This document shows, in pieces, positions 21,001 to 63,711 of a DNA stretch of 64,000 nt. The notes under the pieces are model-generated. The model had not been told where the DNA came from. It did not search any database and worked only from the letters and a program-made list of their open reading frames with translations. Position 1 is the first letter of the stretch, and every line of letters starts with the position of its first letter. Location: positions 372,001-436,000 of the forward strand of contig QPGO01000049.1 of assembly GCA_008632985.1 (NCBI GenBank), in the 5' to 3' direction. Source of the DNA: Psammoneis japonica (Eukaryota). Position numbers and translations under genes: made by a program.

Positions 21001-21384
21001 CCTGTGCCATGGATGGAACCAAACCAGACAGTGCCAGTCTCTCAACCACTGCTGTTGAGATTCTTGCTTCCGCATGTCCCAACACCACAGAAATCAAAAA
21101 CAACAAGAATGGGCTTCAATTGGCTGCAATGATCAGGAACATCAAGGACCAACATTTGGAATGTGTTGTCGTTCAGACGAGAGAAGCAAGGCACAGCACG
21201 TTTCTACGACATGTACACTTCTGCGTGCTTGTCCCGAGCTGCATCGCATGGACACTGGCAGCTGGTAAGAGTGCACATAGTCTTTCTGGTGTCGAATTGT
21301 GATCACAAGAGCAATGACATTTATAAATCCCATTTTTCTATCAAATTCTTACAAATTACCAGAAAATTCCCCCCTATTTACGTA

Positions 21385-30250: not shown

Positions 30251-30319
30251 AGAAATTTTGAGTTGTTGAAGTGTGTGCATGCATTCAATGATGGCACATC
30301 AACTGCAAGACTGTTTGGT

Positions 30320-30885
30320 CACTGGGAAATGTTCACATCTAGGAATGAAAATTTCCCAGGCCTGACCAACAGGTCTTGACTTGCCTCTGTTCTTGCTTCT
30401 GACTGGAACTCATGACCCAACATGAGGACTTGTTTTGATGGTTCACAGTTTGTTGGTCCCATGAGTTGGAAGTTGTTCAAGCATGGGCATGTGAAATGGC
30501 ACACATGCTGACAGATGGACAGAGGCCATCCGGAACATGTGGAGACAGATGTGGCATTGGGTGAATTCAATTTTGTCTGCCAGAACTGAGCAGTCATTTT
30601 TCAATGATGGTGGTTGTTGTCAACAATGCTGACACAACATGCGCCATGTGTTCCAGTTCAAGATTCATTGGCATTCTCTTTGAAATTCCCCAAACCCACC
30701 CTGTGTCAATTGCTGGACCATCAGGTCACTGGGGAATCAACTGCCAGATTGTTGGGTCACCAGGGAATGTTCATGTCCAGGAATGAAAATTTCCCAGGCC
30801 CAAACAACAGTTCTTGACTTGTCTCTGTTCTTGCTTGGGACTGGAGCTTGCAACCCAACATGAGGACTTGTTTCAAGATGGTTCA
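30320..30885. repeat. Two diverged ~125-bp direct repeats (approx. 30320-30445 and 30760-30885)
   Basis: Shared core aggaatgaaaatttcccaggcc...tcttgacttg.ctctgttcttgctt...acccaacatgaggacttgttt...gatggttca. Confidence 0.75.
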
Positions 30886-31292
30886 TCACACTGGTGCATT
30901 GTGGGTGTGATGATCCTGCACGCAGGAGTGAAGATGTTGCCAACAGGGAACAGCACAGTTCTGAGCACTTTGGGTTTGTTCTCTTGAAAAACTTGTTTGG
31001 CTTGCTGTTTGATGTGAAGCCACACAGTGCAAATCTTTGCACAGCATTGAGGGCAAATGTTGACTCTGCTGGCACCATCTTTAATGACATCCTCTTCTCA
31101 GTGTGACTTGAATTCTTTTGCAGAAAACTTTTGAAACAGTCATCATTGGCAGTCTCAAGTCCAGTGCCTTTCAAAGAAGCAGGCTGAGGAAAGGTGCGAC
31201 CTGTTTGCAATTCAACCACTTGTTCCCTTTTGCATGTGGCCTTGTCAATGTTGTAATTCACTCTGGTCATCAGACTGACACACTGCAGCATG

Positions 31293-32448
31293 ATGAGTGG
31301 AAAAGATCCGCATTGTCTCAGTCATGGCACGGGTGCTCTCAGTCATGCGTGTGGTGTCTCATCATTGACGCCGGGTTCAACGTGGATTCTACACAGGGTC
31401 AGAATTCTAAATTTTTGATCCCAGTCATCTTGAATCTTGTTGTCACTTGTTCACAATCCCTGGATTGAAGGAACTCATCCTGCCATGGCACGTGGTCTCT
31501 CTCTGCTCTGCCAGCAGAGGGCTCTAGTCCCACCATGAATTGTTCCAACAAGGCATCCATTGAGTCCTGCAAAGATTCACCTTTGAAGCAAAAACCAAGC
31601 GCCTGTCATCATCATGGTCTGGAAGAAATCAATGAAGACATGCAGCCAATCTTTCTGCCCGCCATCACTGGTGCATCAGGAGTGAGTCCTCAAAGGAGGA
31701 GAGAACCTGCGTGGTCATGTGTGGTGCTCATTTTGTTGTTGTTCATCGCTTCTTTGTTTTGCTGTGCATGAAAGATTTTGGAGGGTGCAGAGCCACGCGA
31801 GGGCACAGCTGATGTTTCCAGGAATGCAGGAGAACTTCAAGACATGGCCAAATCCAAGCAAGATGTGCCATGGCTTGAGAACAATGATTGCAATGTACAA
31901 GCAACGAAGGACATAAAGGCAGCACCAAATTGCAAGAAGAAGGCCAGCTCTGTGGACGTCGAGGTCGCAGACAATTCAGCTCGCAACCAGTGGCCAACAT
32001 TGCATGAACGGAAGGTGGCTGCAGCAATCAAAACAGACCAGAAGAAAAAGGTCAGGAATGCACGTTCAAGGGGCACAGAAGACAACAACGATGTGGGATC
32101 CATCTCGCTGTCTCCGCCGCAGAGGTCTTCATTGCCGGCGCACCAGGACCAGAACTCAGCAGCAGCTTTGCATGATTCGATGCAAGACCCCTGTCAACGC
32201 AAGGAGGGACCGCAGGCACAAGCACAAGGGTCAGTGCTCATGCCATTGTGGGTCCTGAAGCTCCCACAGATGAATCCACTCTCCATGATGACAGTCAAGA
32301 CGCAATCACGATTAACTCAGAACAAGCTCCACAGACGGTTGTCGCACACGCGGTCACCAATGAGGATGTGGCCAATGAAATCCGTGAAAAATTGCACTGC
32401 AAAATGAGACAAGAAGTGCTTGATCAAGCTGTCAATGCCAAAGCCGTG
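31293..32448 (+). pseudogene. Truncated, hypermutated duplicate of the promoter and 5' part of the beta-propeller gene at 52076-53232
   Basis: Collinear with 52076-53232. Differences are dominated by TA->TG/CA and CG->TG/CA; it is frameshifted and ends at ...VNAKAV. Confidence 0.9.
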
Positions 32449-33131
32449 CAACTGGCCACACCTTGCAGGCAGAGCTGTGATGTTGATTGCACCATGATTT
32501 TCGGACATGACAAGAACACCCAAAATTGTGTTCTTTAAATTGCCTGAAGAAATCTTGCATGTTGGCCAATGGACAGTGAGTGCACTTTTTAGAACAGTGT
32601 TTTGCAATTTGTTAGGTGTTGGCCGCAGGGCATGGTTGGGCAATAGGAGTAGAAAAAATGTCATAGAGAGTACATGCTTGTGTAGTTAGCACTAAAAAGA
32701 AAACACACGAGCGCGCAGTCTGGGGCGCAGCGCAGCGCAGCACCGGCGCTCACATCAGGAGCACAGGCGCTTGCACAGCATCGCAGTGAGCCGCACGCAC
32801 GTTGAAACTTGAAACGGCCGTTTCTCGTTTCTCCCGCACCACAAACATCATCAACACGGAGCACCTGCAACAATGGCCGTCGCCGCTGAAAACGAGCATT
32901 ATCGATGTTGTGTTGATACCATTGGACCTGCTGTTGTCAACCCAAAAACTGATTCATAATGAAAACAAATGAGAATATTCTCTTGAGCCGAAATGTGTTT
33001 CTTCATTCTCACATTATTCTCAGTGAGTGAATCAAATCACAAATCACTCCACGGTATTTTTTGGTTTTCTCAACTTCTTGTTCTCCTTTAATCTTTGTCC
33101 ATATTTCCATAGGAAAATGTCACATCATGCT

Positions 33132-36521: not shown

Positions 36522-39510
36522 GCCCCGCCTCTTCGTTTAGAGGTTGGTTAGGACCCTCTATGGATATGGATTCGAGCGCGATCGGTACCCCGTGGATGGT
36601 GTCCCTTTTTGTAGTGGTGTGCTCATTGGTTCTCCGGTTGGAAACTGCCAGCACGGATCGGAGGTGATTTGTCACAACGTAACTCTTTTAGAACCGCAAT
36701 GAATAATGTGCTGTGTGTGACATGCTCGTTGCTCTTGTACTCTTGATGGCTTCGCCGCTTCGCTGTACAATAGTTACGATATTCTTACCTGTTGCGAGAC
36801 TCGTGGTTTCCTCTCAACACCGTCATCGCGTAGGCCTCAAAGCCATCAAATTCGTATGAGTCAGAAACATGTTTTTGCAATGATCATCGGTGTCACCATG
36901 CTAGTTTATGCATCATTCTTTTCAAGTTGAAAAGATTCATGAGTGCGGATGGGGTGCGTTTGGAGTTTGTTGGCGCAAGCACCCGTTTGCATGTCAAAAT
37001 GTCGCTGTCGTATCTATTCATAATTGAGCGAATCCTTTGAGAGTCCTGCCTTGATCAACTGGTTCAAGACCACTACCTCGTTCTATCGATTTGTCCCAAA
37101 GCTCTTTTACTACAGTTTTGACAATTCTTGGAATATTCCTAGCGACATGTACGACTGATCAAGACCGGCATGCCTGTTTTGCGGCGTAATCGAGTAAAGT
37201 CTTCATCTATCCACTCAAGTCATCTAGAGAGAGATAAGAGTATCGCTCCAGACCGTCTCTTGCGTTGTTATGAGCAGTATGATGTGTTGTCATTCCAACC
37301 AAGATTTTGTCAGTTCACAAAAAATCAAAAAATCAAAAATCAAAAATCAAAATCCTGCTGAATCTTTCTTGGGCTGACGGCCAGACGGCTGGATTCAAAA
37401 TTCAAAATCTTACACGAAAATGAATGTTCGCAAATGATCAGTCTCCCTCTTCTCCCCAACAACAACAAAAACGATCACACAAAAACAGACCCGTGACAAC
37501 GGCAAAGACAGTCTCCCACGATGATGCAAGAGACCCACAGCGAGTGGGTGGGAAGCTCTGGGCCTTCAGGGGCTTGTCCAGATGCAATGAATCGTCGACA
37601 TGATCAGCTGCCGCACCTGGAAGAGGCTCGGCATTGGGTGACGGGCAACAGACACAGAAACAACGGGACGAGACGAAGGCAAATCATCTTGGGTGGACTT
37701 GTAGCTGCTCTTGCTATTCTCATTGGTGTTTCCGTGCGTGTCTCCACAAGAGCCGATCGCAACAGCACTCACACCGAGAAACCACCAAACGAGCGGTGCC
37801 AATCGGTGCTCTCTTACTTGGATGGCTGTTCAGACCCGCAAAAACTCCGCACCAAGGGACCCCCGAATGCCGCGTCGTGCTGTGGATGGCAAACGATGAC
37901 CCCCTTCAATGCAACATTCCAGTCAACCCGCTCGAGCAGCACTTTCGCCAGAGGCATGTCCTCGTCCTCTTTTGCTGCCGCATGCCATGGGCGGAGAGCA
38001 ATGGAATGATCAGTTCAACTTTTTGAGAGACAGGAATGAGTGCTTTTGGCATGTCAGACAGGCGCGCAAAGATGCACATTGTGCACCTTCTGGAATGACA
38101 TGTGACGACAATCAAAAATTCGGACAATTGTCAATGGCAAGTTCTGGTGTGAATGAAGGAGAAGGATCCTAAGCCCGAGCGACTTGAGCTTCATTGCATC
38201 TTGCACTGTCAAGTTTGGGAAGCGATCTGTTTTCTCAAACCCGCCTTTTCCATTTCTTGATGTGCAACCGACAGAAGACAACAATTTGAGAGGAAAAATT
38301 CCATCGGAGCTTGGCCTTCTTACAAAGCTCAATTTCTTTTGGACACCGAACAATGACAACATTGCAGGCACCACACCAGATGAACTCCAAGAACTGACAG
38401 ACATGGATGCATTCAATGTGGACAACAACAAGCTGCATGGCACAATCCCAACTTGGATTGGCTCATGGAGCCAAGCAACAATGACAAGCTTGCAGCACAA
38501 CAAATTCTCATCCTCGCCACCCACGGAGTTGGGGCTCCCAACATTTATGATGAGACTTCAACTCAAGGCAATCAATTGACTGGCGCAGTTCCTCACAGAG
38601 TGAAAGGCATGAATGACTTGCAACGTCTGTTGCAGGAAGAAACAAGTTCAAGGGAGAAATTGAAACGTGGCTGCCATCAAATGCGGAAGAGCTGTCAGGT
38701 CTCACTTTGAACGACAACATGTTCAGTGGATTGCTTCCTTCAGCCCTGGGCAACCTCTCGTGCACGGCGCGACTGCATCTGGAACACAACTCATTCACCA
38801 GTGACCTTCTGCCTTGAATTCTCTCAAGCATCTTCAAGCTGTGTTTCTGCAGCACAACCAGTTTGAACAAAGTCTTGATGACAACTTTCATTTTATGAAA
38901 AGACAGACACTCCGCGTCATTGATGCCAGCACAAACAATTTCTGCAGAAAGTTGCTGCCAGAGTGGCTGTCACACAAGATGTTGAAAACCCTTGCTCTCC
39001 ACAATGTTTCTCTCAGTGGTGCACTTCCTGTTGATGTGGCCAAAAACACAGTGCTGGATGCCTGTCGTGACCAAAAACACAGTGCTGGAATGCCCGTCGT
39101 TGAACGCGAACGCGATTGAACATGGCATCCCCGCGTCGATGTCAAACCTCAAGTCCCTCTTTCACCTGGATCTGAGCACCAACGAGTTTTGAATGGTGAC
39201 CTGCCAATGTCGCTCGGGGATGTGGTGGAGCTCACTTGTTTGTCTGTTGCTGAAAACAACACAGATGCTGGTCCATTGGTGCCACAATTCTTGGAGGCAC
39301 CGACGAACTTGAAAGAGCTTTCATTGAGACAAACGAATGTCAATGGACCGATTCCTGCTTGGTTGAGGAAATTCAAAGCTCTTTCCCTTCTGGATCTTGG
39401 CCGTGATGATTTTGCAGGTGAGTTCCCTGCAAGTTTGGGCAAGCTCCCTCTCGAGCACTTGCTGCTCAACCACAATCATCTCAACGGCACCCTGCCACAG
39501 TCGATCCAAG

Positions 39511-42500
39511 TGCAGTGTGCCTCGCTGCTGGACAACACGGCCAGACCGTGCATGAGCCTCTTGTGCATGGCAACGCAGTGTTGTCAACGTGCACCTGGGG
39601 AAGCACGACCACAGGAGGGCGTGGCTCTGGGTCTCAGGCAATTCCAGAAGGATGCCAAGAGAGCATCCATGTGAAGCACACTGGCCCGTCATCTGGCCCA
39701 CGATGGCAGTGTGATTCCACACGATGACATCACTCGTGCATGGCGCATGATGGCTTGATTCGCACGATCCACAATGCGAGTGCACGATCGATTTGATGTG
39801 ATCCAAATGCGAACGAACAGGGATTTGACAAGATTCCCTGTTCGCACGATCCCACTTTTCTCTGCTCCAAACTGGCTCACAATTTTCACAATGACAAAGT
39901 CACAACACATCTTCTTTTCAGCACCTGGTGCATGCACAGGGCACAGTGGTGTTGCTCCCGCATGTTGTGCAAGGTGACGAAATCTGCAGAAACGAAACTG
40001 CGAAATGTTGGCAGGACCGACAAATCTCAAAACAACCATGAAGAAGCGGATTGAGCCGCCGACTCCGTTCGCACAGCCGGAGAAGAAAGAGCTGCAGCAG
40101 GGCAAGTGCCAGACATTCAAACTGCGTGACAACCCCGCTGATCCGGACAGTCCAACGCACGAGATGGGCATCCCGCACCTTTCTGCGGCTGCATGCGAGA
40201 CACTCCCAATCTTTCTGCGCAACGTGGATCGCGTGCACGAAGGAAAAAACATGACGACCGGGCCAGCGAAATTTGCCCTCATGCGCGACCCACTGCAGGG
40301 CGATGCTCTGACGTCATTCAATGATGCCGCTGACAAGCAGGCATCCCAAACCAATGCCACGTGTGCAGCATGCGTCGCGAAGCTAAAGGAAAGTGTCTTC
40401 CCACATGGGGCAGTGCCATTGCAGAAGCGTTGTCTGAGGCGCTTCATGTGCAAGCCCGCAGAGGTTTCTGCTCGTGACTGCGTCACGAGGGCTGTTGAAA
40501 TTGACAGCTGTGTCTCCAAGTTTCCACCCGTGACGGAGGATGGAGAAGCACCGGCGCCATCACCTGACGACAAACTGCGCGATGTGTTTGAGTGCGGTGT
40601 GCTGAGCGCATGGCAGAAGTTCATGACGCCACAGAATTTTGACCCGTTGGCGCATGCTGTTGCCGAATTTGTGCAGTTCTGCGAGCGCATCGAGCAGGTC
40701 GAGCTTGCCGAAGGTAACCTGGACCAACATGCTAAGATTCCACGCAAGCGGGGACGTAGAACGGACAATCTTGAGTCGTTGATCACGTGCCCTGTGTGTG
40801 CACTGGGCGCTGAAAAGAACATGTGTTGCGACTTTGTCGTTGTAAAAATTGTGAGCCAGTTTAGAGTGGAGAAAGTGGGATCGTGCGAACAGGGAATCTT
40901 GCCAAATCCCTGTTCGTTCGCATTGTGGATCGTGCGAATCAAGCCATCACGCGCTGTGCACGAGTGATGTCATCGTGTGGAATCACGCTGCCATCGTGGG
41001 CCAGACGACGGGCCAGTGTGCTTCACACGGATGCTCTCTTGGCATCCTTCTGGAATTGCCTGAGACCTGGAGCCACGCCCTCCTGTGGTCGTGCTTCCCA
41101 GGTGCATGTTGACAACACTGCGTTGCCACGCACAAGAGGCTCACACACGGTCTCGCCGTGTTGTCCAGCAGCGAGGCATGCTGCACACTCCCCCATGATC
41201 AGGGCCGTCAAGTGACAGGATGTCTTGCTGGTGACAGGGTGCAATCTGCCGCAGATTGCATGCATCCATCAGCGCTCCGTTCTGGGTGCGCAACACGCCG
41301 TTGTCACACACACGGACAACTCTGGCGGGTCCTGCACAGCTGTCAGAACTGTGTTTAGAGGATTGTTCCTGTCTGACAAGCACCAATTGCCCTGCGGCAC
41401 ATTGATGCTCCTTGCGTTTCTGATTTTCACGCTTGTTGTTCAAGTGGACAAGCTTCTGCTTTCTGGTTTCCATGTGCTTCCACTTGGCACGATGGGCAAC
41501 AGACAAAACCGCATCACGTCCGAAGACCAATTGCGCGGGACTTGCACGCGTGGTCGCATGTGCCGCAGCTCTGACAGCGAAGGCTGCTGAGGAGAGGATG
41601 CCACTCCATGGGTCATCTTCGTCCAGCTCCACATCCTGCACTGAAAAGGAACGCACCATGTCACCAAGTGTCTGGCGCACATGCTCCACTGTGGCATTCG
41701 CCTGTGGATTCCGTTCACTTGTGGGTTTCTTCAAAATCCCACAGTCATTTTTAATCATCTGGCCAAATTCTGCCACAAATTCTGTCCCACGGTCATGTGC
41801 CACCTGGGTTGGCCACGGATGTCTGCACAGCCACGTTTGTTCCACGACGTTTGCCACGACGTCTGCGCGTTTCACAGACACTTCTTCAATCTCGAACCAC
41901 CCGGTTGCTGGGTCAATCATTGTGACTGCCCATGATTGCAAAGTGTCCTTTCTGCGTCTTTGAATTTTGTGTGGCCCCATCACATCTGTGCACAGAGTCT
42001 CCCATGGAATTGTCTCTGCGACCTTTTCTGGCAGCTTCCCATGACGCTGCATTCGGCGTTTTGTCTTCTGGCATCGATCGCACTTGACGCACGTAGAATG
42101 CACAGTGGACCTCATGCCAGGCCAGCAGAAGTGCTGGGCAACAGATGTTTCCGCACGTGTCTCACCTGGATGACACAGTGTCTCGTGGCACCATTCAGCC
42201 AGCGGAACCTGCAATGACTGTGGTGCTGCGATTTTGTCCTTGTGACAGATTGACTGTCGTGATGCCCCTCCCCCACGACATGCACGAATGGAGCAGTCGG
42301 ACGAGTCCTTGGCTCGTGAGAGCAGGCGCTTGTCCTTTTGTTGTGCTTTTTGAATGCGCTTGAAGCCAACAGGCAGAGATGCCTCATCTTGCACGTCTGC
42401 ATTAAAAGCTTCATGCAAAGGACGACTCGATGGAGTGTCTTTTACATCCGGATTGGCCTCGGAAGGCAAGCTGGGTGCTGGTCGAAGGCGACTGAGAGCG

Positions 42501-45500
42501 TCAGCGACTGGGTTGTGGGTGCCCTTGACATGGCGTAATTTGGGACCGCATTCTTCGCATGTCAACCGCCAGCGCATGACGCGCTCGGCATTGAATGCTT
42601 TGTGCATGAGATTTTTATGATCAGCACATGCAATCACACGATGACCAAGGAGAACTGTTCGAAATTCTTTCAACGTCTCCACAATGGCGAGCAATTCTCT
42701 CTCCGTTGTTGTGTGATTTAATTGCGCACTGTTGAGCTTTCTGCTGTAGAAGGTGACAGGTTTATCATCTTGGGATGTGACTGCTCCCAATTGACATTTA
42801 GAGGCATCGGCATGCATCTCAAAGGGTTTGTTAAAATCAGGATGTGACAACAAAACATCATCCGATGTCACCCGTTTGATGGTTTCGAACGCCTCGTCTT
42901 CAACGGACGTCCACTCCCACTTGACAGTCTCGCTTGCGAGTCGTGTCAGCGGAGCCAAGACTTCAGAACGTCTGATCCACGTGTCACGGTGGCAGTTCAC
43001 CATGCCAATGAATGAGCGCAGGTCGTGTTCATTGGTTGGGGTCGCGATTCGCTTGGTGGCGTCGACTTTGTTGGGTGTTGGTCGCACTCTGTCTCTGTTG
43101 ACCAAGCAACCCAAGCATTCTAATTGGGTTTGACAGAAGTGAGATTTAGTTGCGTCAACTTTTAGTCCTGCTTTCTGGACCCTCAATGAAGCTTCTTCAA
43201 GTTTGTTGAGGTGATCTTCACAGGTGCCTTTCGTCATGACGAGAAGGTCATCTAAGTGTGTTCAAACGAACGACAGATCTTCAAATGAGCCTGACATGCA
43301 CTCTTGGGAAATGTCTGGCGAATCACATGAAAGGGTTTGTTAAAATCAGGATGTGATGATAAAACATCATCCGATGTCACCCGTTTGACGGTTTCGAACG
43401 CCTCGTCTTCAACGGACGTCCACTCCCACTTGACAGTCTCACTTGCGAGTCGTGTCAGCGGAGCCAAGACTTCAGAACGTCTGATCCACGTGTCACGGCA
43501 GCAGTTCACCATGCCAACAAATGAGCGCAGGTCGCGTTCATTGGTTGGGGTCATGATTCGCTCAATGGCGTCGACTTTGTTGGGCATTGGTCATGTTCCG
43601 TCTCTGTTGACCAGATGACCCAAGCACTCTAATTGGGTTTGACAGAAGTGAGATTTGGTTGTGCCAACTTTTGGTCCTGCTTTCTGGACCCTCAACAAAA
43701 CTTCTTCAAGTTTGTTGAGGTGATCTTCATGGGTGCCTTTCGTGCACACGATCCACGTTGCGTAGAAAGATTAGGAGTGTCACGCATGCAGCCGCAGAAA
43801 GGTGCGGAATGCCCATCTCGTGCGTTGGACTGTCCGGATCAGTGGGGTTGTTGCGCAGTTTGAACGTCTGGTGCTCGCCCTGCTGTGGCTCTTTCTTCTC
43901 CGGCCGTGCGAACGGAATCGGCGGCTTAATCCGCTTCTTCATGGTCGTTTTAAGATTTGTCGGTCCTGCCAACATTTCGCAGTTTCGTTTCTGCAGATTT
44001 CGTCACCTCGCACAACATGCGGGAGCAATGTTGCTGTGCCCCATGTGTGTGCCAGGCGCTGAAAAGAAGATGTGTTGCGACTTTGTCGTTATAAAAATTG
44101 TGAGCTAGTTTAGAGCAGAGAAAGTGGGATCGTGCGAATGGGGAATCTTGCCAAATCCCCATTCGTTTGCATTGTGGATCATGCGAATCAAGCCATCACG
44201 CGCCATGCACGAGTGATGTCATCGTGTGGAATCACACCACCATCGTGGGCCAGACGACGGGCTAGTGTGCTTCACACGGATGCTCTCTTAGCATCCTTCT
44301 GGAATTGCCCAAGACCTGGAGCCACGCCCTCCTGTGGTCGTGCTTCCCAGGTGCGTGTTGACAATGCTACGTTGCCATGCACAAGAGGCTCACACACGGC
44401 CTCGCCGTGTTGTCCAGTGGCGAGGCATGCTGCACACGACCCAACGGAACACCCAGAAGTCGTGCATGCCACACGGGACCAACTGTGGACATCATGCGGA
44501 GGATTGCCGTCAGCTCAAGCACCACGTGAAACGTGTCAAGACTGGACATTCCAATGACGGAGGCAGCAAGCCCAATGCAAAACCTCGGAATGAGGAAGAC
44601 ATCAATGCTCTCATCGGATCAAAGGTCGAGGAGTTCTTTGCCAATGCTCAGAAAAAGCGCAAGGCACGTGAGGAGGAGCTCAATCACTTCCGCGACCTCA
44701 ACTTGAGTGATTCTGAAGATTCGGACACCTGAGAAGGGGGCCGACACAATGCAGGCAGTTTTAACACATTGGATGAATGCATGAATGAACAACTGAATTA
44801 CCGTCATACACGTGTTGTGGGCCAATCCCGCAAATGAGTTAAAAAGACTCATCTTGCTCCAATCTTGTTTGCAGCTGTGAACACCAAACATGGCAAGGGC
44901 AAGACTCAAACCATTGAGGCACTGCCAGATGGTGGCGCCAGCAGTGCTCTGCTCGACAGTCGACACTGCAAGCATCTGCAAAGCCATTCAATGGCTGAGA
45001 CAAACTGGACCATGGTGGCAGGCTCGTTCAGTGCGTCCAACGACTGCACCGTTAAATTTCGGTTGCCAGAATTGTCCGAAACTGCAGAACTTAAACATGC
45101 CGTCCACGTGCACAACGGAAAGTTGGGCAAGCACGACATGATCATTGGACGTGACATTCTGGAGACACAAGGCATTGATGTTGTCTTCTCCAAGCAGATG
45201 ATGGAGTGGCCATTGGTCAATGGAGAAGTGCCAATGAGGCACGTAGATGCTGCGGTAGAAACCTCCTTCTATCTTCAAGATCCAGAAGCCTCATCTTCGG
45301 AAACCGACCGGATTTCACGCATTTTGGACGCCAAGCACGCGCCGGCCTGCCTCGAGGACATAACGCGAGGGGCAATGGGACTTTCTACAGTTCAACAAAA
45401 CGACCTTTTGGCACTGTTGAAACGCCATGAGTCCTTGTTTGATGGGACATTGGGAGAATGGAAGGGAGAACCCTGCCACATCCAACTCAAGGAGGGTGCA

Positions 45501-48462
45501 GAACCGTGCCACACTCATCCACACAAAGTGCCTCGTGCGTGCGAAGCTACGCTGTGTAAAGAAGTAGAACGCCCAGCGCGCATCGGTGTTCTCAAATGCG
45601 TCAACCAATCCCAATGGGCAGCTCCATCATTTGTCATGCCGAAGAAAGACTTGACGGTGCGCTTTGTCAATGATTTCAGAGAGCTGAATGAACGGATCAA
45701 GCGATTGCCTTGTCCAATTCCTCACATCCAAGACATGCTGCTTGAGCTTGAAGACTTTGTGTGGGCTGCATCGCTGGATTTAAATGTGGGCTGTTGTCAC
45801 ATCCGGTTGGATGCTGATGGCAAGAAGCTCTGCATGCTCATCTTCCCGTGGGGCAAGTGTGAGATGCAGGCATTGCCCATGGGATCATGTGGTTCACCAG
45901 ACATTTCCCAAGAATGCATGTCAGGCTCATTTGAAGATCTGTCGTTCGTTCGAACGTGCTTAGATGACCTTCTCGTTGTGACGAAAGGCACCTGTGAAGA
46001 TCACCTCAACAAACTTGAAGAAGTTTCATTGAGGGTCCAGAAAGCAGGACTAAAAGTTAACGCAACTAAATCTCACTTCTGTCAAACCCAATTAGAATGC
46101 TTGGGTTGCTTGGTCAACAGAGACAGAACATGACCAACACCCAACAAAGTCGACGCCACCAAGCGAATCGCGACCCCAACCAATGAACACGACCTGCGCT
46201 CATTCATTGGCATGGTGAACTGCCACCGTGACACGTGGATTAGACGTTCGGAAGTCTTGGCTCCGCTGACACGACTTGTGAGCGAGACTGTCAAGTGGGA
46301 GTGGATGTCCGTTGAAGACGAGGCGTTCGAAACCGTTGAACGGGTGATGTCGGATGATGTTTCATTGTCACATCCTGATTTTAACAAACCCTTTGAGACA
46401 CATGCCGATGCCTCTAAATGTCAATTGGGAGCAGTTGTGTCCCAAGACAATGTACCTGTCGCCTTTTACAGCAGAAAGCTCAGTGGTGTGCAATTAAATT
46501 GTGCAACAACGGAGAGAGAATTGCTCGCCATTGTGGAGACGTTGAAAGAATTTCGAACGATTCTCCTTGGTCATCGTGTGCTTGCATGTGCTGATCATAA
46601 AAATCTCACGTACAAAGCATTCAATGCCGAGCGCGTTATGCGCTGGCGGTTGACATGCGAAGAATGCGGTCCCAAATTACGCTGTGTTGAGGGTGCCCAC
46701 AACCTGGTCGCTGACGCTCTTGGTCGCCTTTGGCTGGCACCCAGTTTGCCTTCCGAGGCCAATCCAGATGTAAAAGACACTCCATCGAGTCGTCCTTTAC
46801 ATGAAGCCTTTAATGCAGATGCGCAAGACGATGCATCTCTGCCTGTTAGCTTCAAGCGCATTCAAAAAGAACAACAAAAGGACAAGTGCCTGCTCTCACG
46901 AGCCAAGGACTCGTCCGACTGCTCCATTCGCGCGTGTCGTGGGGGAGGGTCATCACGACAGTTAATCTGTCATAAGGACAAAATCGCAGCACCACAGTCA
47001 TTGCAGATCCTGCTGGCTGAATGGCACCACGAGACACTGTGTCATCCAGGTGAGACACGTGCAGAAACATCTGTTGCCCAGCACTTCTGCTGGCCCAGCA
47101 TGAGGTCTGTGGTGCATTCTACGTGCGTCAAGTGCGATCGATGCCAGAAGACAAAACGCCGAACGCAGCATTGTGGGAAGCCACCAGAAAAGGTCGCCGA
47201 GATAATTCCATGGGAGACTCCATGCACAGATGTGACAGGGCCATGTAAAATTCAAAGACGCGGAAAGGACACTTTGCAATTGTGGGCAGTCACAATGATT
47301 GACCCAGCAACTGGGTGGTTCGAGATTGAAGAAGTGTCTGCAAAACGCGCAGACGTCGCAGCAAACGTCGTGGAACAAACGTGGCTGTGCAGATGTCCGT
47401 GGCCAACCCAGGTGGTTTATGACCGTGGGACAGAATTTATGGCAGAATTTAGCCAGACGATTAAAAATGACTGTGGGATTTTGAAGAAACCCACAAGCAA
47501 GCAGAATCCACAGGCGAATGCCACAGTGGAACGTGCACACCAGACACTTGGTGACATGGCACGTTCCTTTTCAGTGCAGGACATGGAACTGGACAAAGAT
47601 GACCCATGGAGTGGCATCCTCTCCGCAGTGGCCTTCGCTGTTAGAGCTGCGGCACATGCGACCACGCATGCAAGTCCCATGCAATTGGTCTTCGGACGCG
47701 ATGCGGTTTTGTCTGTTGCCCATCATGCCAAGTGGAAGCACACAGAAACCAGAAAAACAGAAGCTTGTCCACTTAAATGACAAGCGTGAAAATCAGAAAC
47801 GCAAGGAGCACCAATGTGCCGCAGGGCAGTTGGCACTTGTCAAACAGGAACAATCCTCTAAATGCGGTTCTGACAGCCATGCAGGACCCGCCAGAGTTGT
47901 CCGTGTGTGTGACAACAGCACGTTGCATGTCCAGAACGGAGCGCTGACAGATGCGTGCAATCTACGGCAGATTGCACCCTGTCACCAGTGAGACATCCTG
48001 TCACTTGATGGCCCTGATCATGGGGGAGTGTGCAGTGTGCCTCGCTGCTGGACAACACGGCGAGACCGTGCATGAGCCTCTTGTGCATGGCAACGCAGTG
48101 TTGTTAACGCGCACCTGGGAAGCACGACCACAGGAGGGCGTGGCTCTAGGTCTTGGGCAATTCCAGAAGGATGCCAAGAGAGCATCCGTGTGAAGCACAC
48201 TAGCCCGTCGTCTGGCCCACGATGGCAGTGTGATTCCACACGATGACATCACTCGTGCATGGCGCGTGATGGCTTGATTCGCACGATCCACAATGCGAAC
48301 GCACGATCGATTTGATGCGATCCAAATGCGAACGAATGGGGATTTGACAAGATTCCCCATTTGCACGATCCCACTTTTCTCTGCTCTAAACTGGCTCATA
48401 ATTTTCACAACGACAAAGTCGCAACACATCTTCTTTTCAGCGCCTGGTGCACACATGGGGCA
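39511..48462 (+). mobile_element. Full-length Ty3/gypsy LTR retrotransposon (outer element), inactivated
   Basis: LTRs 39511-39943 and 48031-48462 (TG...CA); 4-bp TSD CAAG (39507-39510, 48463-48466); PPT GGGGGAG before the 3' LTR. gag ~40005-40787 plus 44439-44732 (CxxHG...H....C knuckle). pol ~44865-47990 in PR-RT-RH-IN order (ALPDGGAS; CLDD; ADASKCQLG; HPGETR...CDRC; DRGTEF). Stop at 46131, frameshift near 47755. Confidence 0.95.
40788..44434 (-). mobile_element. Internally deleted copy of the same gypsy family nested antisense inside gag of the outer element
   Basis: LTRs 40788-41185 and 44037-44434, both lacking the same ~34-bp segment; 4-bp TSD CACG (40784-40787, 44435-44438). A short gag start (43975-~43735) is fused to the RT end; ~400 bp of RT/RH is duplicated; RH-IN runs to about 41230. 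Confidence 0.93.
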
Positions 48463-49220
48463 CAAGATCTGTCCACGCTCGGCAAGTCGTCCATGTGAGA
48501 TCCTTGTTTTGCAGGTTTTGCTTGAGCATTTCTTACACACAAGTGTTTGTTCCTTTTTGCAGAGGTTGCATTCTTGAGTGAGAATGACATCGCGGGCAGC
48601 GTTGGATCACTTTGCAAGGGAACAAGCCTTGCCAACAATCTAGAAGAGTTGAGCGCGGATTGCGGTGGAGAGACACCCAAAGTCACTTGCCCCTGCTGCA
48701 CGGTTTGCTGTCAGGATGGAACAGACACTTGTGATTCCACCAAGACACCAGCCAATCACTGGGTTTCCACTTGCAATCGAGGCAAGTGGGACTTTCAAAA
48801 TGATTTGAATGAAATTTTTTAGTCTGAGCATGAAAAGATGCAGACAGTGTGAATGCACGCCATGAATCATCCCAGTGCACAAGTTGAGACCTTTGCACAG
48901 TGATGGCTGCCACCAAGTGTCCAATGGATGCCTTGCATCATGGCTCAGCTCACCTCTGCAGCAGCTCTCTGGCTGGCAGAGAGCACCATGGACTTTGAGA
49001 AACCTGAAGAGCAGGGAGGGCGGTGAAGTCATGGCAGCACCGTTGCACTTCTTTTGCAGAGCTCAAGAAAATGTCAGTGCTGACCTGACTTAGAAATGAC
49101 AAGTGCGCAAGCTCTTTGCCTCAACACCGTGTTGCATCTCTCAACATCTCATCACAACCGGTGGTTGCAAAGCAAGAAACAAGTGGAGCAAGTTGACAGT
49201 GACTGAAAGATCACCAGAAC

Positions 49221-50810
49221 ATGTCATCAACAGGAGGAGGAGATGCATCGTCGACACAAGAAGCGATGAATTTGTTGGCCGAGTTGCTTCAGGAGCATCA
49301 GCAGCACAAACAAATGCTCGTGGATCTCAAGGCCAAAGAACGTGCGGCAACTCTAGTTTCTGTCCCGATGCTTCTGAATCAGGTTTGCAAGGCGCTGCGT
49401 GCCATGGGTTTGCTGGTTCGATTGTTTGGAGAAAATCTGGCCAATGTTCGTGATTGACTTCAACATGGGTTGGCCAAACAACAAGTGCGCAGTGAAAGTG
49501 AAGGTGCACAACAGCAAGAAGCTGCTGCCAAAACTTGGGTCGTGGAGGAGGAAGAAGGGCAGGTTACAAAATGCATGAGAGCATCTCAAGAACTTGTCAA
49601 GGCAAGGCAGAAAATTGTGCTGTTCTCTTTGGAACTGTCCAAGAGTTGTCTTGCCAAGGAACGGATGATTTGTCCAGGGGCAAAGCAAAAGCGTGCACAG
49701 AAACAGCTGGAGACAACAACTGAAAATGACGCAGGCATTGCAGAACTTGATCGAGTCAATGAGGGCTGTCTGAAGCTTCACAAACCACAATGTCAAGTGA
49801 CATTGCAGAGATTGCAACATGGGGATGAACGACCGCTTTCTGCCATTTGTGCCACCTCTGATGCTTGCCCAGTTGCCACGGGTGGTTGGAGCGGGTCGGT
49901 CAAGTTGTGGGATGGTTCGTCTTTGCAGATGAGTTTGATTGGTCACACATCCATGGCTCATGAGGATCAAATCACAGGTGTGGCCATTGCGTCGTCATCG
50001 CAGTCGAACAACCAGCCAGCGGCAACAGCATCCATTGACTTGACAGGGAAGTTGTTCAAGATTGCAGAGAATGACATTCACATGGAGACTGAAGATGATG
50101 ACAAGAACAAAAACAATGACGATGGCACATCATTGCTCTGCCACAGTTTTGAAGAGGTTGCTCATCTCAAGGGTCACGCAGTGCGCTTGTGCAAGGTGGC
50201 ATTTCATCCCACCCATGCATGTGTTGGGACCTGCAGCTGTGACCACAAGTGTCATCTCTGGGATGTGGAAACTTCAAAGATGTTGCTGCTTCAAGATGGA
50301 CACTGGAAGGAGATGTGTGGCATTGGTTTCCATCCCGATGGGTCTCTGTGCACCGCTGCTGATTTAGGAGGTGTCATTCAAGTTTGGGACTTGCGAACCG
50401 GCAAGTCGTCGCAAGTTGATTGGTGACTTTTTGGGTCACACCAAGCGGGTGCTTTGCTCTGACTTTTCACCCAATGGCTTTCATTTGGCAATGGCCGGTG
50501 ACGATGGGACCATCAAGGTGTGGGATTCACGAAAGAGAAAGAAACTGTCATTTGCAAACATTCCTGCTCATTCCAATCTAATGTCTCAGCTACGATGCAA
50601 TGTTTGCTCCGGAGGGGAGTCTCCAGTGTCTGTGAGTTTTGATGGGACAGCCAAAGTGTGTGGTCCGCGCGAGACCACAAGATGCTTTCCTCTCTCTGAG
50701 GACACAAGGGCAAGGCAATGGGAATTTATGTTGTGGGAGCAAGCACTGGAGCCATTGTCACCAGTGGATGTGACAAGACCATCAAGTTTTGGAAGCAGCG
50801 GGAACACACA
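49221..50810 (+). pseudogene. PRP4: Hypermutated copy of the U4/U6 snRNP protein Prp4 gene (SFM domain plus WD40)
   Basis: VSVPMLLNQVCKALRAMGLLVRLFGENLANVRD* (PRP4/SFM motif, Arg->TGA); GDERPLS; LKGHAVRLCKVAFHP; LLLQDGHWKEMCGIGFHPDGSL; FSPNGFHLAMAGDDGTIKVWD; IPAHSNLMS. Stops and frameshifts; TA almost absent. Confidence 0.85.
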
Positions 50811-51233
50811 GAATCTGGAAATCACTTGATTTCCATGCTTGGCTCCTTCGCCATTCGTGCACATGAGGGAGGCACAAAAAAAGGCAGAGGACAAGAATTG
50901 GAAAAAATCCACCCACACACTCTCTAAAGATTGTGGCACTTCCTGTGCTTCTTTCACAACATCTCCTTCCGACATGTTCAATGTGCTCCATGGCACGAGA
51001 TGCAGAAAGGAGGAAATTGCATTTTCCAACTGCTCTCTGCTGTGGAGAGACTCTCTCTCTCTCTCTCTCTCTCTCTAGAGCAGAGAGAGCAGAGATGTCA
51101 TGGAGAAGCATGAGCAAATTTTCCAAAACTGTTGCACACAAATGACGATGCAAAGCATGTGACAAACCAACAGATGGACACATGTGTGTCTCTGGTGAGA
51201 TTCCGGGTGCCGGATTCCATTGATCTCTCCCAC

Positions 51234-52075
51234 AAGAATCAAGATGGCATCTGCACGCAAGCCCATCTCCCAAACAACTGCAAGAAAGTACAAGATGAAC
51301 AATGATTGGATCAAGCCGTCCAAAGCCAAGTGCAGACCTCCATCAATCAGACCTGCGACCAAGTCAAAGAGGTGCAATGCAAACAGATGAACTCTCCCTC
51401 TTCACCCAACACATGATCAAGGCATCAGCTCAATGCAAAAGCCTGGACAGCACAGCAAAAAGATTGATGGAACAATGCACCATGAAATGCTGAATGAGTG
51501 TTCTCCAGAACCCACAACCATTGGCTTGAATGATGGCTCTCCTCAAGGACCAAGCTCCCCCCACGTCAACATGACAGCACAGTGGGCGACCTTGCTCTGT
51601 CAGCTCTTTGACTCACCTTTGGTGGAAGCCCAAATCCAAATGTTTGGGGTGAGCCTGACACATCTGAAACAATCTGCTGTGACATTGCCAATGACATCCT
51701 CCACAGCAGTGCATGGGACCCCTCATGCCAGCAAAAACCCAGTGCTGCAAAACCACACTCCACAACCAAAATTTGAAAGCCCCAACATCACTTTTGCCAC
51801 AGCATGAGAGCTTCAAGCAGATGCACCAGTCAACAATGACAAGAGGAAGGCAGATGTGTGCATTGTGACACCATTGTGTGGTCACACATTGCACACACAG
51901 GTGGCAACAACATCAAACAAGGAGAAGGAGCAGTCTTGTCAGGCATGCACACCATTGGAAGACCTGTGCATCCAAAAAAAGACTTGCCATGCAACAATCT
52001 GATGTGCCTCATAAAGCCAATGGCAGAATTTTGCCTTGAAGAACTCAAGATCATTCTCGGTTGGCTCCTGGACAC
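51234..52075 (+). mobile_element. Second, deleted fragment of the Ngaro-like element
   Basis: 51234-51580 matches ~26238-26600 and joins directly to sequence matching ~27760-28245 (junction atgacagcac|agtgggcgac). Confidence 0.85.
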
Positions 52076-52318
52076 ATGAGTGGAAAAGATCCGCACTGTT
52101 TCAGTCGTGGCGCGGGTGCTATTACTGCAGTCGTACGTGCGGTGTCTCATCATTGACACCGGGTTCAACGTGGATTCTACACGGGGTCAGAATTCTAAAT
52201 TTTTGATCCCAGTCATCTTGAATCTCGTTGTCACTTGTTCACAATCCCCGGATTGAAGGAACTCATCCCGCCATGGTAGTCTCTCTCTACTCTACCGGTA
52301 GAGGGCTCTAGTCCCACC

Positions 52319-54603
52319 ATGAATCGTTCCAACAAGGCATCCATGACGTCGTACACAGATTCGCTTTTGAAGCGAAAACCAAGCGCCTATCGTCGTCATG
52401 GTCTAGAAGAAATCAATGAAGACATTCAGCCAATCTTTCCACCCGCCGTCGCCAGCGCATCTGGAGTGAGTCCTCAAAGGAGGAGAGAACCTGTGTGGTA
52501 ATGTATGCTGCTCATTTTGTTGTTGTTCATCGCTTCTTTGTTTTGTTGGCATGAAAGATTTCGGAGGGTGCAGAGCCACGCGAGGGCACAGCTGATGTTT
52601 CCAGGAACGCGGGAATACTTCAAGACACAACCGAATCCAAGCGAGATGCACCGTGGCTTGATTTTCACGAGAACAATACTCGCAACGTACAAGCAACGAA
52701 GGATATGAAGGTAGCACCGAATTACAAGAAGAAGGCCAGCTCCGCGGACGTCGAGGTTGTAGACAATGCAGTTCGCAACCAGCGGCCAACATTGTATGAA
52801 CGGAAGGTAGCTGCAGCAATCGAAACCGACAAGAAGAAAAAGGTCAGGAATGCACGTTCAAGGGGCACGGAAGACAATAATGATGTAGGATCCATGTCGC
52901 TGTCTCCGCCGCAGAGGTCTTCATTGTCGACGCACCAGAACTCAGCAGTAACTTTGCATGAATTCGACACAAGACCACCGCCGCAAGGAGGGACCGCAGG
53001 CTCAAGCACAAGGGTCGGTGCTCATGCCATTGCGGGTCCTGAAGCTCCCACGGATGAATCCACTCTCCGGGACGACAGTCAAGACGCAATCACGATTAAC
53101 TCAGAACAAGCTCCACAGACGGTTGTCGCACACGCGGTTACCAATGAGGATATGGCCAATGAAATCCGTGAAGAATTGCGCTACGAAATAAGACAAGAAG
53201 TGCTTGATCAAGCCGTCAATGCCGAAGCTGTGAACGTTGTAGTGTCTACCGGGAATGATGGAAATCCGTCTGATAGTGACAAAGCGGCTGAAGAAGGGCG
53301 TTTTTGGAAACGCAAATCATTTATCATTTCTTCAATCATCATACTCATTGCAATTGTGGGGGCAGTGGTTGGGGCGGTGCTTGGCAGCAGTGGTGGTAGC
53401 GGAGAGTCACCATCCGCGACGGTATCTCCTACATTTAGTCCGGCTCCCACATCTACTCCCGCACCTTCGCAAAGTCCAGCAACCGTAACCGTCTTACAAA
53501 CGATACAGGGTGCTGAGGAGGGGAGCAGGTTTGGTGGAGATGTTGCTGTCTCGAGAGACGGCGGCACAATTGCAGTGGGTGCCAACCAGGGCAACACAGT
53601 AACTGCCTATAGACGGAGTGATTCTCAGTGGAATCAAATCGGTCAAGTGCTTCGTGGCAGCGGCGGAGAGTTCGGGCACCGGGTGCATATAAATAGTGAT
53701 GGTACCAGAGTCGCTGTTGGTGCAAGGGTGTTTGGAGAAGATAAAGCCGGCCAAGTCCAGGCATTTGAGCTCAAACAGCCCGAGGAAGTCGAGTGGTTGC
53801 CACAGGGTGGACCAATCAATGGTAGTGAACCTGGTGATGAATTTGGATGGGAGGTGGCCGTATCCGATAGCGGAGGGACAATGGCTGTGACAGCCAGACT
53901 TGGTGATCCTTCCGGCAGGCTGGACGCGGGATACGTGCGGGTTTACATTTGGAGGAGCAATTGGACACAGCTTGGTCAGGACCTGGAGGGCGAGATCGCA
54001 CTTGACTCATTCGGTCGTTCTGTAGCGCTTGATGCTACCGGGCGTCGAGTCGCCGTAGGTATCATACATGCCGGAGGTAGCTTTGGGAGTGTTCAGGTTT
54101 TTGACTACGTTGGTGAGAGTTGGATCCAGGTGGGCCAAGACATAAATGGAGAGGAGTTTGAAGCTTGGCACGGAACGAGCGTTGCACTTTCCAAAGATGG
54201 CTCCGTTTTAGCCATCGGAGCCGGTGGAAGCGACGCTGCCGGGACCAACTCCGGGATGGTCCGAGTCTTTGAACTTTCTGGAAGCAGGTGGGTTCAGCGT
54301 GGCTCGAATATCCTTGGGCGAGCACCTTTAGGCAAGCTTGGTGGCGGACACTTGAGCTTGTCTGATGATGGAAACCTTGTTGCTGCTGGAGCTCAAAACC
54401 TACAAAAAGAAATCGGCGCCGCTTACATCTTTCGGTACGACGATGCTGTTTCCGATTGGGTGCAGACTGCTGAGGTCACCGGAGACAAAGAGAAAGACGA
54501 TTTTGGTGAGTCGATTTCTCTCTCAGGCGATGGATCGGTTCTTGCTGTAGGGGCACCGGACAATGGAAATGGATACGTTCGGGTGTTCCAGGTAGAATAT
54601 TGA
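52319..54603 (+). CDS. Intact single-pass membrane protein with an FG-GAP-like beta-propeller; one 5' intron ending at about 52557
   Basis: Exon 1 MNRSNKAS... splices into the 632-aa ORF: VGAHAI motif, TM IISSIIILIAIVGAVVGAVLG, PT linker, repeats FGGDVAVSRDGGTIAVGA, FGRSVALDATGRRVAVG and FGESISLSGDGSVLAVGAP. Normal TA and Tyr content. Confidence 0.9.
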
Positions 54604-55248
54604 TGTTTTCTTGTTTCAGGGGTTCGCGCTCAGGAGGCGATGGTTCTTCTCCCAGTTCTTCTCCATTTGTTGGGCGATGGAAGGCGGTGCCCCCATATGC
54701 ACGTTTCACGAGTACTATTATTTGTTGCACGTTTGCGCCTTTCAAAAGTCAAAATTCCTGATCGTCAATTCACGTTGACGTGGAAATGTTCTACCACAGA
54801 AGGCACTATGATAGCTACCACCTCGTAAAAGAAACCAAGTTATGCATGCATGTCTCCCTATGAATATGTCCATCTTTTTCAACCAGTTGAGTGGCTGTCT
54901 CTTGGGTCTTCAACACCTTTGTCCAACACGGGCGAGAGAGTCGACGTGGGGCGACAGCGCAGAGTAAGTGTCGTTCGGTATGCGACCACAATCATGCAAA
55001 ACATCATGATCGCTACCACCGCAGTAACGGAGGTCACTTTAATCTCCATCCAGTCCAGGACAGAAAAATTGCCAGTGGCTAATATTTAGGTGGGGGCTGC
55101 ATGATTCTCACGATATCCTTATGGGTTTCGGAGTGATACGTCGGTACAACAGAATCTCACTGGTTCCTTTTCGTAAAACTGTAGCTTCTGACATGATGTT
55201 AAATTGCGCGATTTTTCTTCAGCTGCCTACTCATGTGTCTTTTCTCAA

Positions 55249-61274: not shown

Positions 61275-61559
61275 ATTTGAGAGTCTCAAAGCCACTTTCT
61301 CCAATAAATTGCTAAACAAGTAGCCTGTTTGCAAATGCAGCGGCAATATATCGACACTTGTCACTTCCTGCAAAAGATTTTGTGATTTGTGAAGATGCGC
61401 TCCTCATGTTGAGCTGATGTGTTGCGTAGAAGTTGTACGGAAGCCTACGCAAGCTGACCACTGACTGACTCACGTCACTGATGACACGGACGCACGAAAG
61501 ATTTTTTTGTACGACTGCGACGACTCGCACGACGCGCACAGTCTACAGCACTGCACTCC

Positions 61560-63110: not shown

Positions 63111-63711
63111 CCTTACAAGGAAAATGGTGAACCTCTTGTTTGTGTTCCATTTTGGACGGAGAAGCAACCCAAACCAGAAGAATCAACAATCCGTCACCAA
63201 GCTGGAAGCGGACAGAATTACACGTGGAAGTTCATGTTGAAGTTTGTGTCGCGCTTGACAAGCGCGGAAAGGTCGGTGAGCCAATTTTCGAAAAGGGTGC
63301 TGAAACTCCCTCCAACGTCCAACGACAAATGCGCCAGCACCACCATGACGAAACAAAACCAACGAGTGGGAGCACCAATAGCAACCCAATTTGCAGCGCT
63401 CACCATGCATCATTTTGGGGCGTACCAGCTCTTGTCACTGGCAAAATGAAACGGGTTGCGAGCCGTTGTGTCACTGCTGAAGTGTCGGCATCATGTTTGT
63501 CTTTGTCCGTCAGGTTGTCGATGTGATGTGATGGCGTTCTCATTTTTTGAGTCGCGGAGCTGTCGTGGAAAGCTGCTTTCTCAAAAAAGAAAACGATACG
63601 CTTCCAGGTACAAATCACAGACAAAACAAGTGTTACAGTAACACAAGAGAGAAGATAGGAGAAACAAGAAGCAAAAAGAAGTACTCAGGAAGAAATGAGA
63701 TGAGAGAAACA

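Follow-up and report, generated by a model that had tools for sequence, protein, structure and literature searches.

Probable local hypermutation of TpA in blocks of a Psammoneis japonica contig that carry nested gypsy retrotransposons and host gene remnants

Why do two copies of one retrotransposon family carry different residues at the place of the same catalytic tyrosine? The question is raised by a window of 64,000 nt from Psammoneis japonica (contig QPGO01000049.1, 372,001 to 436,000; the window is this whole stretch, and all coordinates are relative to it), which contains two nested, dead Ty3/gypsy-type long terminal repeat (LTR) retrotransposons of the same family on opposite strands. 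A first-pass annotation had read the catalytic motif of the reverse transcriptase (RT) as CLDD in the outer element and HLDD in the inner one, and had derived both from an ancestral tyrosine codon, mutated in each copy after insertion. Both motifs were found exactly where it had placed them, with the codons TGC TTA GAT GAC (outer, plus strand) and CAC TTA GAT GAC (inner, reverse complement), and all six of the inner/outer peptide pairs that it had listed were present in the translations. Our analysis makes it very probable that the cause was a local hypermutation at the DNA level, which converted TpA to TpG or CpA after integration, independently in each copy and within limited blocks; a deaminase as the agent and defence as the role would be suppositions beyond this.

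The layout of the elements was obtained by comparing the window with itself, and the protein domains by Pfam searches on the open reading frames (ORFs):

39510-39945 (+): 5′ LTR of the outer element, 93.6% identical to 48030-48464
39946-40780 (+): leader and beginning of a gag-like ORF of the outer element, interrupted by the nested insertion
40781-44437 (-): nested inner copy, deleted internally and rearranged
40787-41188 (-): 3′ LTR of the inner copy, 91.5% identical to 44036-44437
41144-43261 (-): pol of the inner copy, with Pfam RT, RNase H and integrase domains
42821-43234 and 43330-43743 (-): RT piece of the inner copy, 414 nt, present in two copies
43247-43258 (-): HLDD, RT catalytic motif, Tyr to His (CAC)
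43739-44035 (-): gag-start fragment of the inner copy
44036-44437 (-): 5′ LTR of the inner copy
44438-48029 (+): rest of the interior of the outer element
44838-46130 (+): RT ORF of the outer element (Pfam)
45957-45968 (+): CLDD, RT catalytic motif, Tyr to Cys (TGC)
46131-46133 (+): in-frame stop TGA of the outer element
46134-47777 (+): RNase H-integrase ORF of the outer element (Pfam)
48030-48464 (+): 3′ LTR of the outer element

The domain order (RVT_1, RT_RNaseH(_2), Integrase_H2C2, rve) is that of Ty3/gypsy, with the integrase after the RT. Both copies belong to this group by descent but are dead, an intact YxDD being replaced by CLDD and HLDD. Pfam gave no match for the gag-like ORF (39978-40964) and no protease family for the ORFs of the window at E ≤0.01, although the homologues do carry retropepsin-like families. 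The family is highly repeated, since the 4175 read-derived contigs placed over the element reach a summed word depth of 10,800-55,900, against 50-160 in the flank (this depth does not equal copy number).

In order to establish the ancestral state, the pol of both copies was aligned with 60 homologues (50-57% identical), and the columns in which at least 70% share a residue were scored. The inner copy keeps the tyrosine in a single one of 20 conserved Tyr columns (10 are Cys and 9 His) and the outer copy in 2 of 23 (17 Cys, 4 His), while conserved arginines are kept in 29/31 and 32/35 columns, respectively. All tyrosine codons are TAY; because the Tyr columns have become Cys or His while the Arg columns were kept, the ancestral codons were TAY and not CGY, in agreement with the first-pass annotation. 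Tyrosine has fallen to 0.14% of residues in the inner and 0.41% in the outer copy, compared with 3.84% in the 60 homologues pooled, and it makes up 2.9-4.9% in each of the 120 homologues listed. The other replacements in excess in pol (Ile to Val, Thr or Met, Thr to Ala, Lys to Glu, Val to Ala, Leu to Ser or Pro) match those predicted for a change of TA to TG or CA within a codon or across a codon border. The polarity of the change is thus from TA to TG/CA.

The timing of the changes was read from five copy-to-copy alignments (3689 nt in total), in which 228 difference events were classified: 75 adjacent TG<>CA doubles, 72 CG<>TG/CA, 34 TA<>TG/CA, 34 other transitions and 13 transversions. Between the two pol copies (2142 aligned nt), transitions account for 171 of the 181 differing positions, and 41 adjacent TG<>CA doubles were counted where 2000 random placements of the same changes gave 2.4 on average and never more than 8. 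The two LTR pairs contain 5 and 11 such doubles, 5 and 5 TA<>TG/CA and 10 and 5 CG<>TG/CA differences, with only 2 other (non-YR) changes each in 435 and 402 nt. An element integrates with two identical LTRs, both being made from one template, so that these doubles and TA<>TG/CA differences must date from after integration and have arisen in DNA. Tyr columns mutated in the inner and the outer copy alike number 14; 7 of them hold the same residue and 7 hold different ones, as predicted for independent choices, and a three-way RT alignment includes one site with TA, TG and CA, one state per copy. TG and CA are balanced in the elements, with no strand bias between them. The proposal of independent mutation after insertion, on either strand, is therefore borne out, and changes confined to one strand, which the first-pass annotation had set down as speaking against it, were not seen.

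The putative primer-binding sites inside the two 5′ LTRs (39946-39975; 44005-44035, minus strand) differ by two TG<>CA doubles, hence even a short functional site was hit independently in each copy.

These differences bear on two alternative explanations. The first is editing of the kind that leaves APOBEC3 and ADAR footprints in animals, which are also clustered, deaminase-type transitions that inactivate retroelements. The targets of those enzymes are cDNA or RNA prior to integration, so that the changes are strand-specific and spare the flanking host DNA, whereas here the changes are found on both strands, in both LTRs and in the flanks. An ADAR-like A-to-I editing of element RNA or cDNA, fixed by reverse transcription, would account for A to G changes in the right context, a U 5′ of the edited base being typical of ADAR according to the Discussion in 10.64898/2026.01.13.699255. 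Against it speaks that Tyr to Cys (A to G in the sense strand) and Tyr to His (T to C in the sense strand) are both present, that the LTRs of one element differ, and that DNA which was never retrotransposed (the LRR remnant, the PRP4 pseudogene and 31293-32448, all described below) has the same changes; we give it hardly any weight.

The second is ordinary decay of methylated CpG and nothing else, with Cys and His derived from ancestral CGY (Arg) codons deaminated on different strands. A single step leads from CGY to TGY or CAY, CG<>TG/CA differences are frequent (the 72 of 228 events above), and CG to TG/CA changes lie in the same blocks as the TpA losses. Such decay, however, can give neither Tyr to Cys or His nor a loss of TA, and the Cys and His residues stand in conserved Tyr columns while the arginines were kept. 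When a two-class model of CpG and TpA loss was fitted to the copy differences, the loss per copy was 0.10-0.20 for CpG and 0.78-0.91 for TpA, and CpG decay supplied only 0.1-2.5 of the 5, 11 and 45 TG<>CA doubles. In addition, some copies retain TA at the polymorphic sites, and one copy of the paralogous pair A/B examined below has lost 23 of 31 TAs in one direction. CpG decay is, accordingly, a slower companion in these blocks, and as the sole cause it is scarcely credible. Because 78-91% of the TAs were converted while each LTR pair has only 2 non-YR changes, the per-site rate of TpA conversion would be several hundred-fold above background and, by a similarly rough inference, about ten-fold above CpG decay in the elements; the former figure is indirect and based on small counts.

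The question then becomes how far the process extends beyond the elements. TpA and CpG observed/expected ratios were computed in 1-kb windows. The TpA ratio is 0.17 in 39511-48462, compared with 0.4-0.9 in ordinary 1-kb windows, and the 1490 nt of 38894-40384 are without any TA. Six sharply bounded TpA-poor blocks make up 30.9 of the 64 kb (48% of the window) and hold 167 TAs, whereas the remaining 33.1 kb hold 1261; CpG is also lowered in most of them, to an observed/expected ratio of about 0.1. The blocks are:

1900-3900: TpA- and CpG-poor block, containing a MAPEG-like ORF (1924-2496)
10500-12150: TpA- and CpG-poor block
18500-21250: TpA- and CpG-poor block
23900-32450: block with TpA ratios of 0.01-0.10 and CpG ratios of 0.06-0.34 across 24001-32000
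about 37800-52000: block of 14 kb with the elements and their flanks, TpA ratios of 0.00-0.31 per kb
61500-63250: TpA- and CpG-poor block

In the block at 37800-52000, the flanks have CpG ratios of 0.14-0.67 and the elements of 0.64-1.03, and the GC content across the elements is 0.49-0.55. The flanks of the elements, with TpA ratios of 0.00-0.08, are more depleted than the elements themselves, and the block therefore probably predates the insertions. The following features lie in the flanks or served as controls:

31293-32448 (+): copy A, hypermutated paralogue of 52076-53232, inside a block
38157-39509, resuming at 48465-48822 (+): LRR gene remnant into which the outer element inserted, Tyr-free and nearly TA-free
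49260-50673 (+): PRP4 (U4/U6 snRNP WD40) pseudogene, interrupted by one in-frame stop and, near 50410, by a frameshift
52076-53232 (+): copy B, unmutated, in ordinary DNA; upstream region and 5′ part of the FG-GAP gene
52555-54600 (+): intact FG-GAP gene
57100-58224 and 58221-59346: tandem duplicates of a kinase-like gene, 83% identity (PK_Tyr_Ser-Thr match at 57920-59359)

None of the five conserved tyrosines of the PRP4 pseudogene is kept (2 Cys, 2 His, 1 Ser), and 16 of its 28 conserved arginines are (4 Cys, 4 Gln, 2 His and 1 stop among the others); it also carries transversions, and the closest named relatives of the remnant are raphid pennate diatoms. The first-pass annotation had spoken of a mechanism that kills transposable elements. 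Retrotransposon copies were indeed hit, but specificity for transposons did not stand up, since host pseudogenes and a truncated gene duplicate in the blocks were hit as well, and a purpose stays a matter of inference. The process covers whole blocks of DNA and not transposon sequence as such, so that the observation of the first-pass annotation holds and its interpretation is supported, with a scope widened from the transposon to the block.

The limitation to blocks was controlled with copies A and B, which are 88% identical. The 31 TAs of B are read in A as 15 TG, 8 CA, 5 TA and 3 other dinucleotides, with 1 change in the reverse direction; the 75 CGs of B are read as 24 CA, 17 TG and 31 CG, with 5 in the reverse direction. 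The block around copy A stops where the A/B homology stops, and the block boundary beside copy B, near 52012, is no more than about 60 nt away from the junction to repeat-derived DNA. The non-coding DNA upstream of the FG-GAP gene keeps its TAs, hence the protection of copy B is not just purifying selection on a protein. The tandem duplicates, with normal TpA and CpG, differ at 188 positions, of which 103 are transitions, with 1 TG<>CA double and 27 TAs kept in both; from this normal spectrum it follows that duplication alone is not the trigger.

A process triggered by homology, marking any duplicated DNA as fungal repeat-induced point mutation (RIP) does, has to be weighed here. What we observed resembles ascomycete RIP in its dense, transition-only and dinucleotide-specific changes, in its sharply bounded blocks, in affecting repeated or foreign DNA and in leaking into neighbours. 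The gypsy family is highly repeated, as its read depth indicates, and the block around 31293-32448 ends together with the homology to 52076-53232. RIP, however, changes C to T mostly at CpA, creates TpA, raises the AT content and makes stops; here the direction is opposite, TpA being destroyed and not made, the GC content is near 0.5 and TAA and TAG are removed. Only one of the two paralogues was hit (23:1 for TA, 41:5 for CG), and the 1.1-kb tandem duplicates, at 83% identity, are untouched. A RIP-like trigger appears improbable to us.

Copies A and B are part of a larger segmental duplication in the window, to which 26230-26601/51227-51580 and 27759-28244/51579-52074 also belong. Repeat-derived DNA and the initial 1.15 kb of the region with the FG-GAP gene are present twice, the copy at 26-32 kb having about 3 kb extra between the common parts, and of the gene part only the truncated copy is hypermutated. 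One contig from the sequencing runs described below joins 52120 to 54731, skipping 2610 nt at a depth of 58.6, and represents an alternative form without most of the FG-GAP gene.

The sequence context of the changes goes beyond the dinucleotide. The 88 TAs surviving in the elements were compared with 18,521 TAs in 79 related unmutated metagenome loci: Y-TA-R is enriched 2.27-fold and R-TA-Y reduced to 0.12-fold (chi-square p = 3e-12), the surviving R-TA-Y counts being 0 for ATAT, 1 for ATAC/GTAT and 2 for GTAC. The same flanking-base preference was found when the blocks were compared with the rest of the window, and 12 of the 15 TAs kept in both pol copies are preceded by a pyrimidine, including the TTA of C/H-L-DD. 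In the tyrosine codons TAY, the pyrimidine after TA is part of the most depleted context, R-TA-Y. A preference of this kind argues for an enzyme over unspecific chemistry.

The effect on reading frames is marked. TAA and TAG together occur at 3.9 per 1000 triplets in the blocks compared with 16.1 outside, while TGA is nearly unchanged, and this depletion explains the long ORFs seen in all six frames. The stops that interrupt the elements align with arginine: at the TGA of the outer element (46131-46133) the inner copy translates Arg and other contigs of the family read C at 46131 (CGA), and the inner-copy stop that immediately precedes HLDD also corresponds to an Arg of the outer copy. The stops thus come from CpG decay (CGA to TGA) and not from the TpA process. 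In practice, hypermutated copies keep long ORFs and will be annotated as proteins by gene finders, and dates of insertion derived from LTR divergence will be badly wrong; conversely, looking for Tyr-free 'proteins' rich in Cys and His is an easy way to screen further genomes for the process.

Which chemistry could produce such a pattern? In the sequence of events that we propose, TpA would become TpG or CpA by an A:T to G:C transition on one or the other DNA strand, and this conversion would proceed after integration, in each copy separately, until some 80-90% of the TAs were lost. R-TA-Y would be preferred and Y-TA-R spared; Tyr would become Cys or His, and codons for Ile, Thr, Lys, Val and Leu would be altered too where they contain a TA or come after one. 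With TAA and TAG erased, the wrecked copies would still read as long open frames. The slower decay of CpG to TpG/CpA, as expected of methylated DNA, would act on the same blocks and supply the stops. The polarity, the timing after integration, the action on both strands, the restriction to blocks and the sequence context are shown by the data; the rest of the scheme is proposed. The targeting would be by DNA block, probably by silent chromatin, and not by transposon sequence; silent, methylated chromatin may be what marks the blocks. By analogy with the proposal made for the chlorarachniophyte Bigelowiella natans, the reaction may be a deamination of DNA adenine by an ADAT2/TadA-like deaminase, and the process as a whole may serve as a genome defence.

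A different chemistry with the same targeting, to which we give a small but real share of the probability, would be oxidation of the thymine of TpA by a dioxygenase of the TET/JBP type to 5-hydroxymethyluracil or 5-formyluracil, which would mispair with G and give T to C. 5-formyluracil is mutagenic, and 5-hydroxymethyluracil occurs in the DNA of some protists. The same class of dioxygenase acting on 5-methylcytosine at CpG would explain the changes at both self-complementary YpR steps; TA and CG were both lost to TG/CA in the same blocks, and in the sequence an A to G change on either strand looks the same as a T to C change on its partner. Against this, the loss in the elements is 78-91% for TpA and 10-20% for CpG, which two processes fit better than one.

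We also considered that the hypermutated sequence could be an artefact of sequencing or assembly, for instance of modified bases miscalled in the blocks. Contigs were built from two runs of one sample, and these reproduce the hypermutated flank at a word depth of about 55-60, with 7 differences in 448 nt and 2 in 362 nt. A modification limited to the blocks could cause miscalls limited to the blocks, and the runs probably derive from the source sample; yet strand-dependent miscalls would split the words at each site and give no clean contigs, the PRP4 copy also has a frameshift, a stop and transversions, and an unrelated metagenome contig carries the same signature. An artefact is therefore very unlikely. 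The same runs contain, at similar depth, a second and less mutated version of 48670-52000 (the PRP4/LRR flank) that is 11-14% different and may be an allele or a paralogue. Among the 40 differences listed (633 more exist), 29 lie in the flank: the second version has CG in 10 and TA in 5 where the window has TG or CA, with 1 in the reverse direction, 2 rows forming one TG-to-CA double, 5 other transitions and 6 transversions.

Across 80 related gypsy loci from metagenomes, the median TpA observed/expected ratio is 0.78, and 79 have a value of at least 0.51. The only one with the signature (TpA 0.19, CpG 0.04) is locus L030, and the signature is therefore rare in the clade without being unique to this genome. 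L030:4-1176 is an open frame of a gypsy relative (46% identity) on a metagenome contig of 1518 nt from an unrelated data set; its 9 conserved Tyr columns hold 3 His, 2 Cys, 3 Tyr and 1 Phe, and it shares the CRHPWP and GPH motifs with the inner copy.

Several points weigh against a TpA hypermutation as proposed here. Its polarity in pol is deduced from homologues only 50-57% identical and not from a consensus of the family; the closest protein relative of pol has 57% identity, and a degenerate 28-nt RT pattern, used to find closer unmutated relatives, gave 0 matches in the metagenome contigs. The confirming runs probably stem from the source sample and are not independent material. The inner copy is rearranged, and its two LTRs may stem from different insertions. 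No target-site duplication was recognised at the ends of either element, the flanks being themselves hypermutated. Finally, the ratio of TpA to CpG loss (in log terms) is about 12:1 in the elements and about 2:1 in the pair A/B, from which it follows that the two processes are not locked together; TpA loss may come in episodes, or may level off at contexts that resist it.

The closest known parallel to the hypermutation proposed here comes from B. natans, for which a 2026 preprint (10.64898/2026.01.13.699255) describes mutation-accumulation lines in which two integrated viral regions received 231 of the 302 new mutations; every one of these was at TpA, and nearly all were of the A:T to G:C type. 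They arose in only some lines, at a rate of about 6e-7 per site per generation, about 1000-fold over background, and the targets were integrated giant-virus and virophage DNA; the genome also contains TpA-poor, CpA- and TpG-rich clusters, among whose genes reverse transcriptase and DDE domains are over-represented (10.64898/2026.01.13.699255). An ADAT2-like DNA adenine deaminase was proposed by the authors, the enzyme not being identified there (10.64898/2026.01.13.699255). Both systems share A:T to G:C changes at TpA, giving TpG or CpA depending on the strand, in discrete regions and, here by the rough estimate above, far above background. They differ in several respects: B. natans is a rhizarian, whereas the present genome is that of a diatom-like stramenopile; depletion there is live and partial (Rho TpA of 0.45 in the viral region), whereas here a near-saturated end state is seen (0.0-0.3); and the targets here are LTR retrotransposons and host pseudogenes, not viral DNA. 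Changes of CpG to TpG/CpA are frequent here, in contrast to the almost complete lack of G:C to A:T changes in the B. natans region, and we read them as a second, methylation-type process; the flanking-base preference is likewise visible here, in contrast to that report. The main text of the preprint makes no mention of diatom, CpG, retrotransposon or tyrosine (10.64898/2026.01.13.699255).

The novelty of our observations is tempered by this precedent, whose signature is the same. The preprint on this one chlorarachniophyte is the only report so far (10.64898/2026.01.13.699255), and a full-text literature search, in which subscription journals were mostly outside the coverage, found none of TpA hypermutation in diatoms. 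A DNA mutator with dinucleotide specificity, other than RIP and methyl-CpG decay, would add a new class to the genome defences of eukaryotes, and a saturated end state in a diatom-like genome would extend the process to a second major lineage and to retrotransposons. To what the live B. natans experiment could show, our analysis adds a flanking-base preference that constrains the enzyme, block limitation with a paralogue control, and coexistence with CpG decay. That diatoms in general possess a chromatin-targeted mutator which erases TpA, with R-TA-Y preferred, from any DNA in silent blocks, and that this is the same system as the rhizarian one, is an idea we put forward tentatively and with somewhat less than even confidence. 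If true, the mutator would exceed the background rate by a factor of hundreds and would also outpace methyl-CpG decay; it would keep GC content and reading frames while replacing every Tyr, probably through a DNA-acting adenine deaminase; and it would represent an old genome defence of the stramenopile-alveolate-rhizarian lineage, with a polarity opposite to that of fungal RIP.

Other blocks hold further remnants. A third motif named by the first-pass annotation, CIDD, is present at 28030-28041 (plus strand), in the following feature of the block 23900-32450:

27842-28642 (+): ORF of the RT-like remnant with CIDD (28030-28041)

CIDD and this ORF are in different frames, so a frameshift separates them. 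The ORF has 262 relatives at E ≤0.001, with a common xIDD motif, and 30 relatives have Y (17), F (12) or C (1) before IDD; none of the 6 conserved Arg columns retains its arginine in the remnant (3 Cys, 1 His, 1 Trp, 1 Ser). Pfam gave no family for the ORF or for 10 of its relatives, and a search for longer relatives found none. The label 'Ngaro' given to the element was not confirmed, the recombinase having been sought only via Pfam on ORFs and 12 of the 30 homologues having Phe before IDD. Pfam searches on 84 ORFs of the other blocks returned only weak matches, to MAPEG and Glyco_transf_20, which mark remnants of host genes. The MAPEG-like ORF (1924-2496, plus strand; E = 1.2e-4, just below the Pfam cut-off) and the Glyco_transf_20 (trehalose-phosphate synthase) fragments at 25162-25588 (plus strand, two frames, E = 1.2e-8 and 0.014) both lie in hypermutated blocks. 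In ordinary DNA, the ORF at 4150-5523 (plus strand) is intact and encodes an LtrA (low-temperature requirement A) domain of bacterial type.

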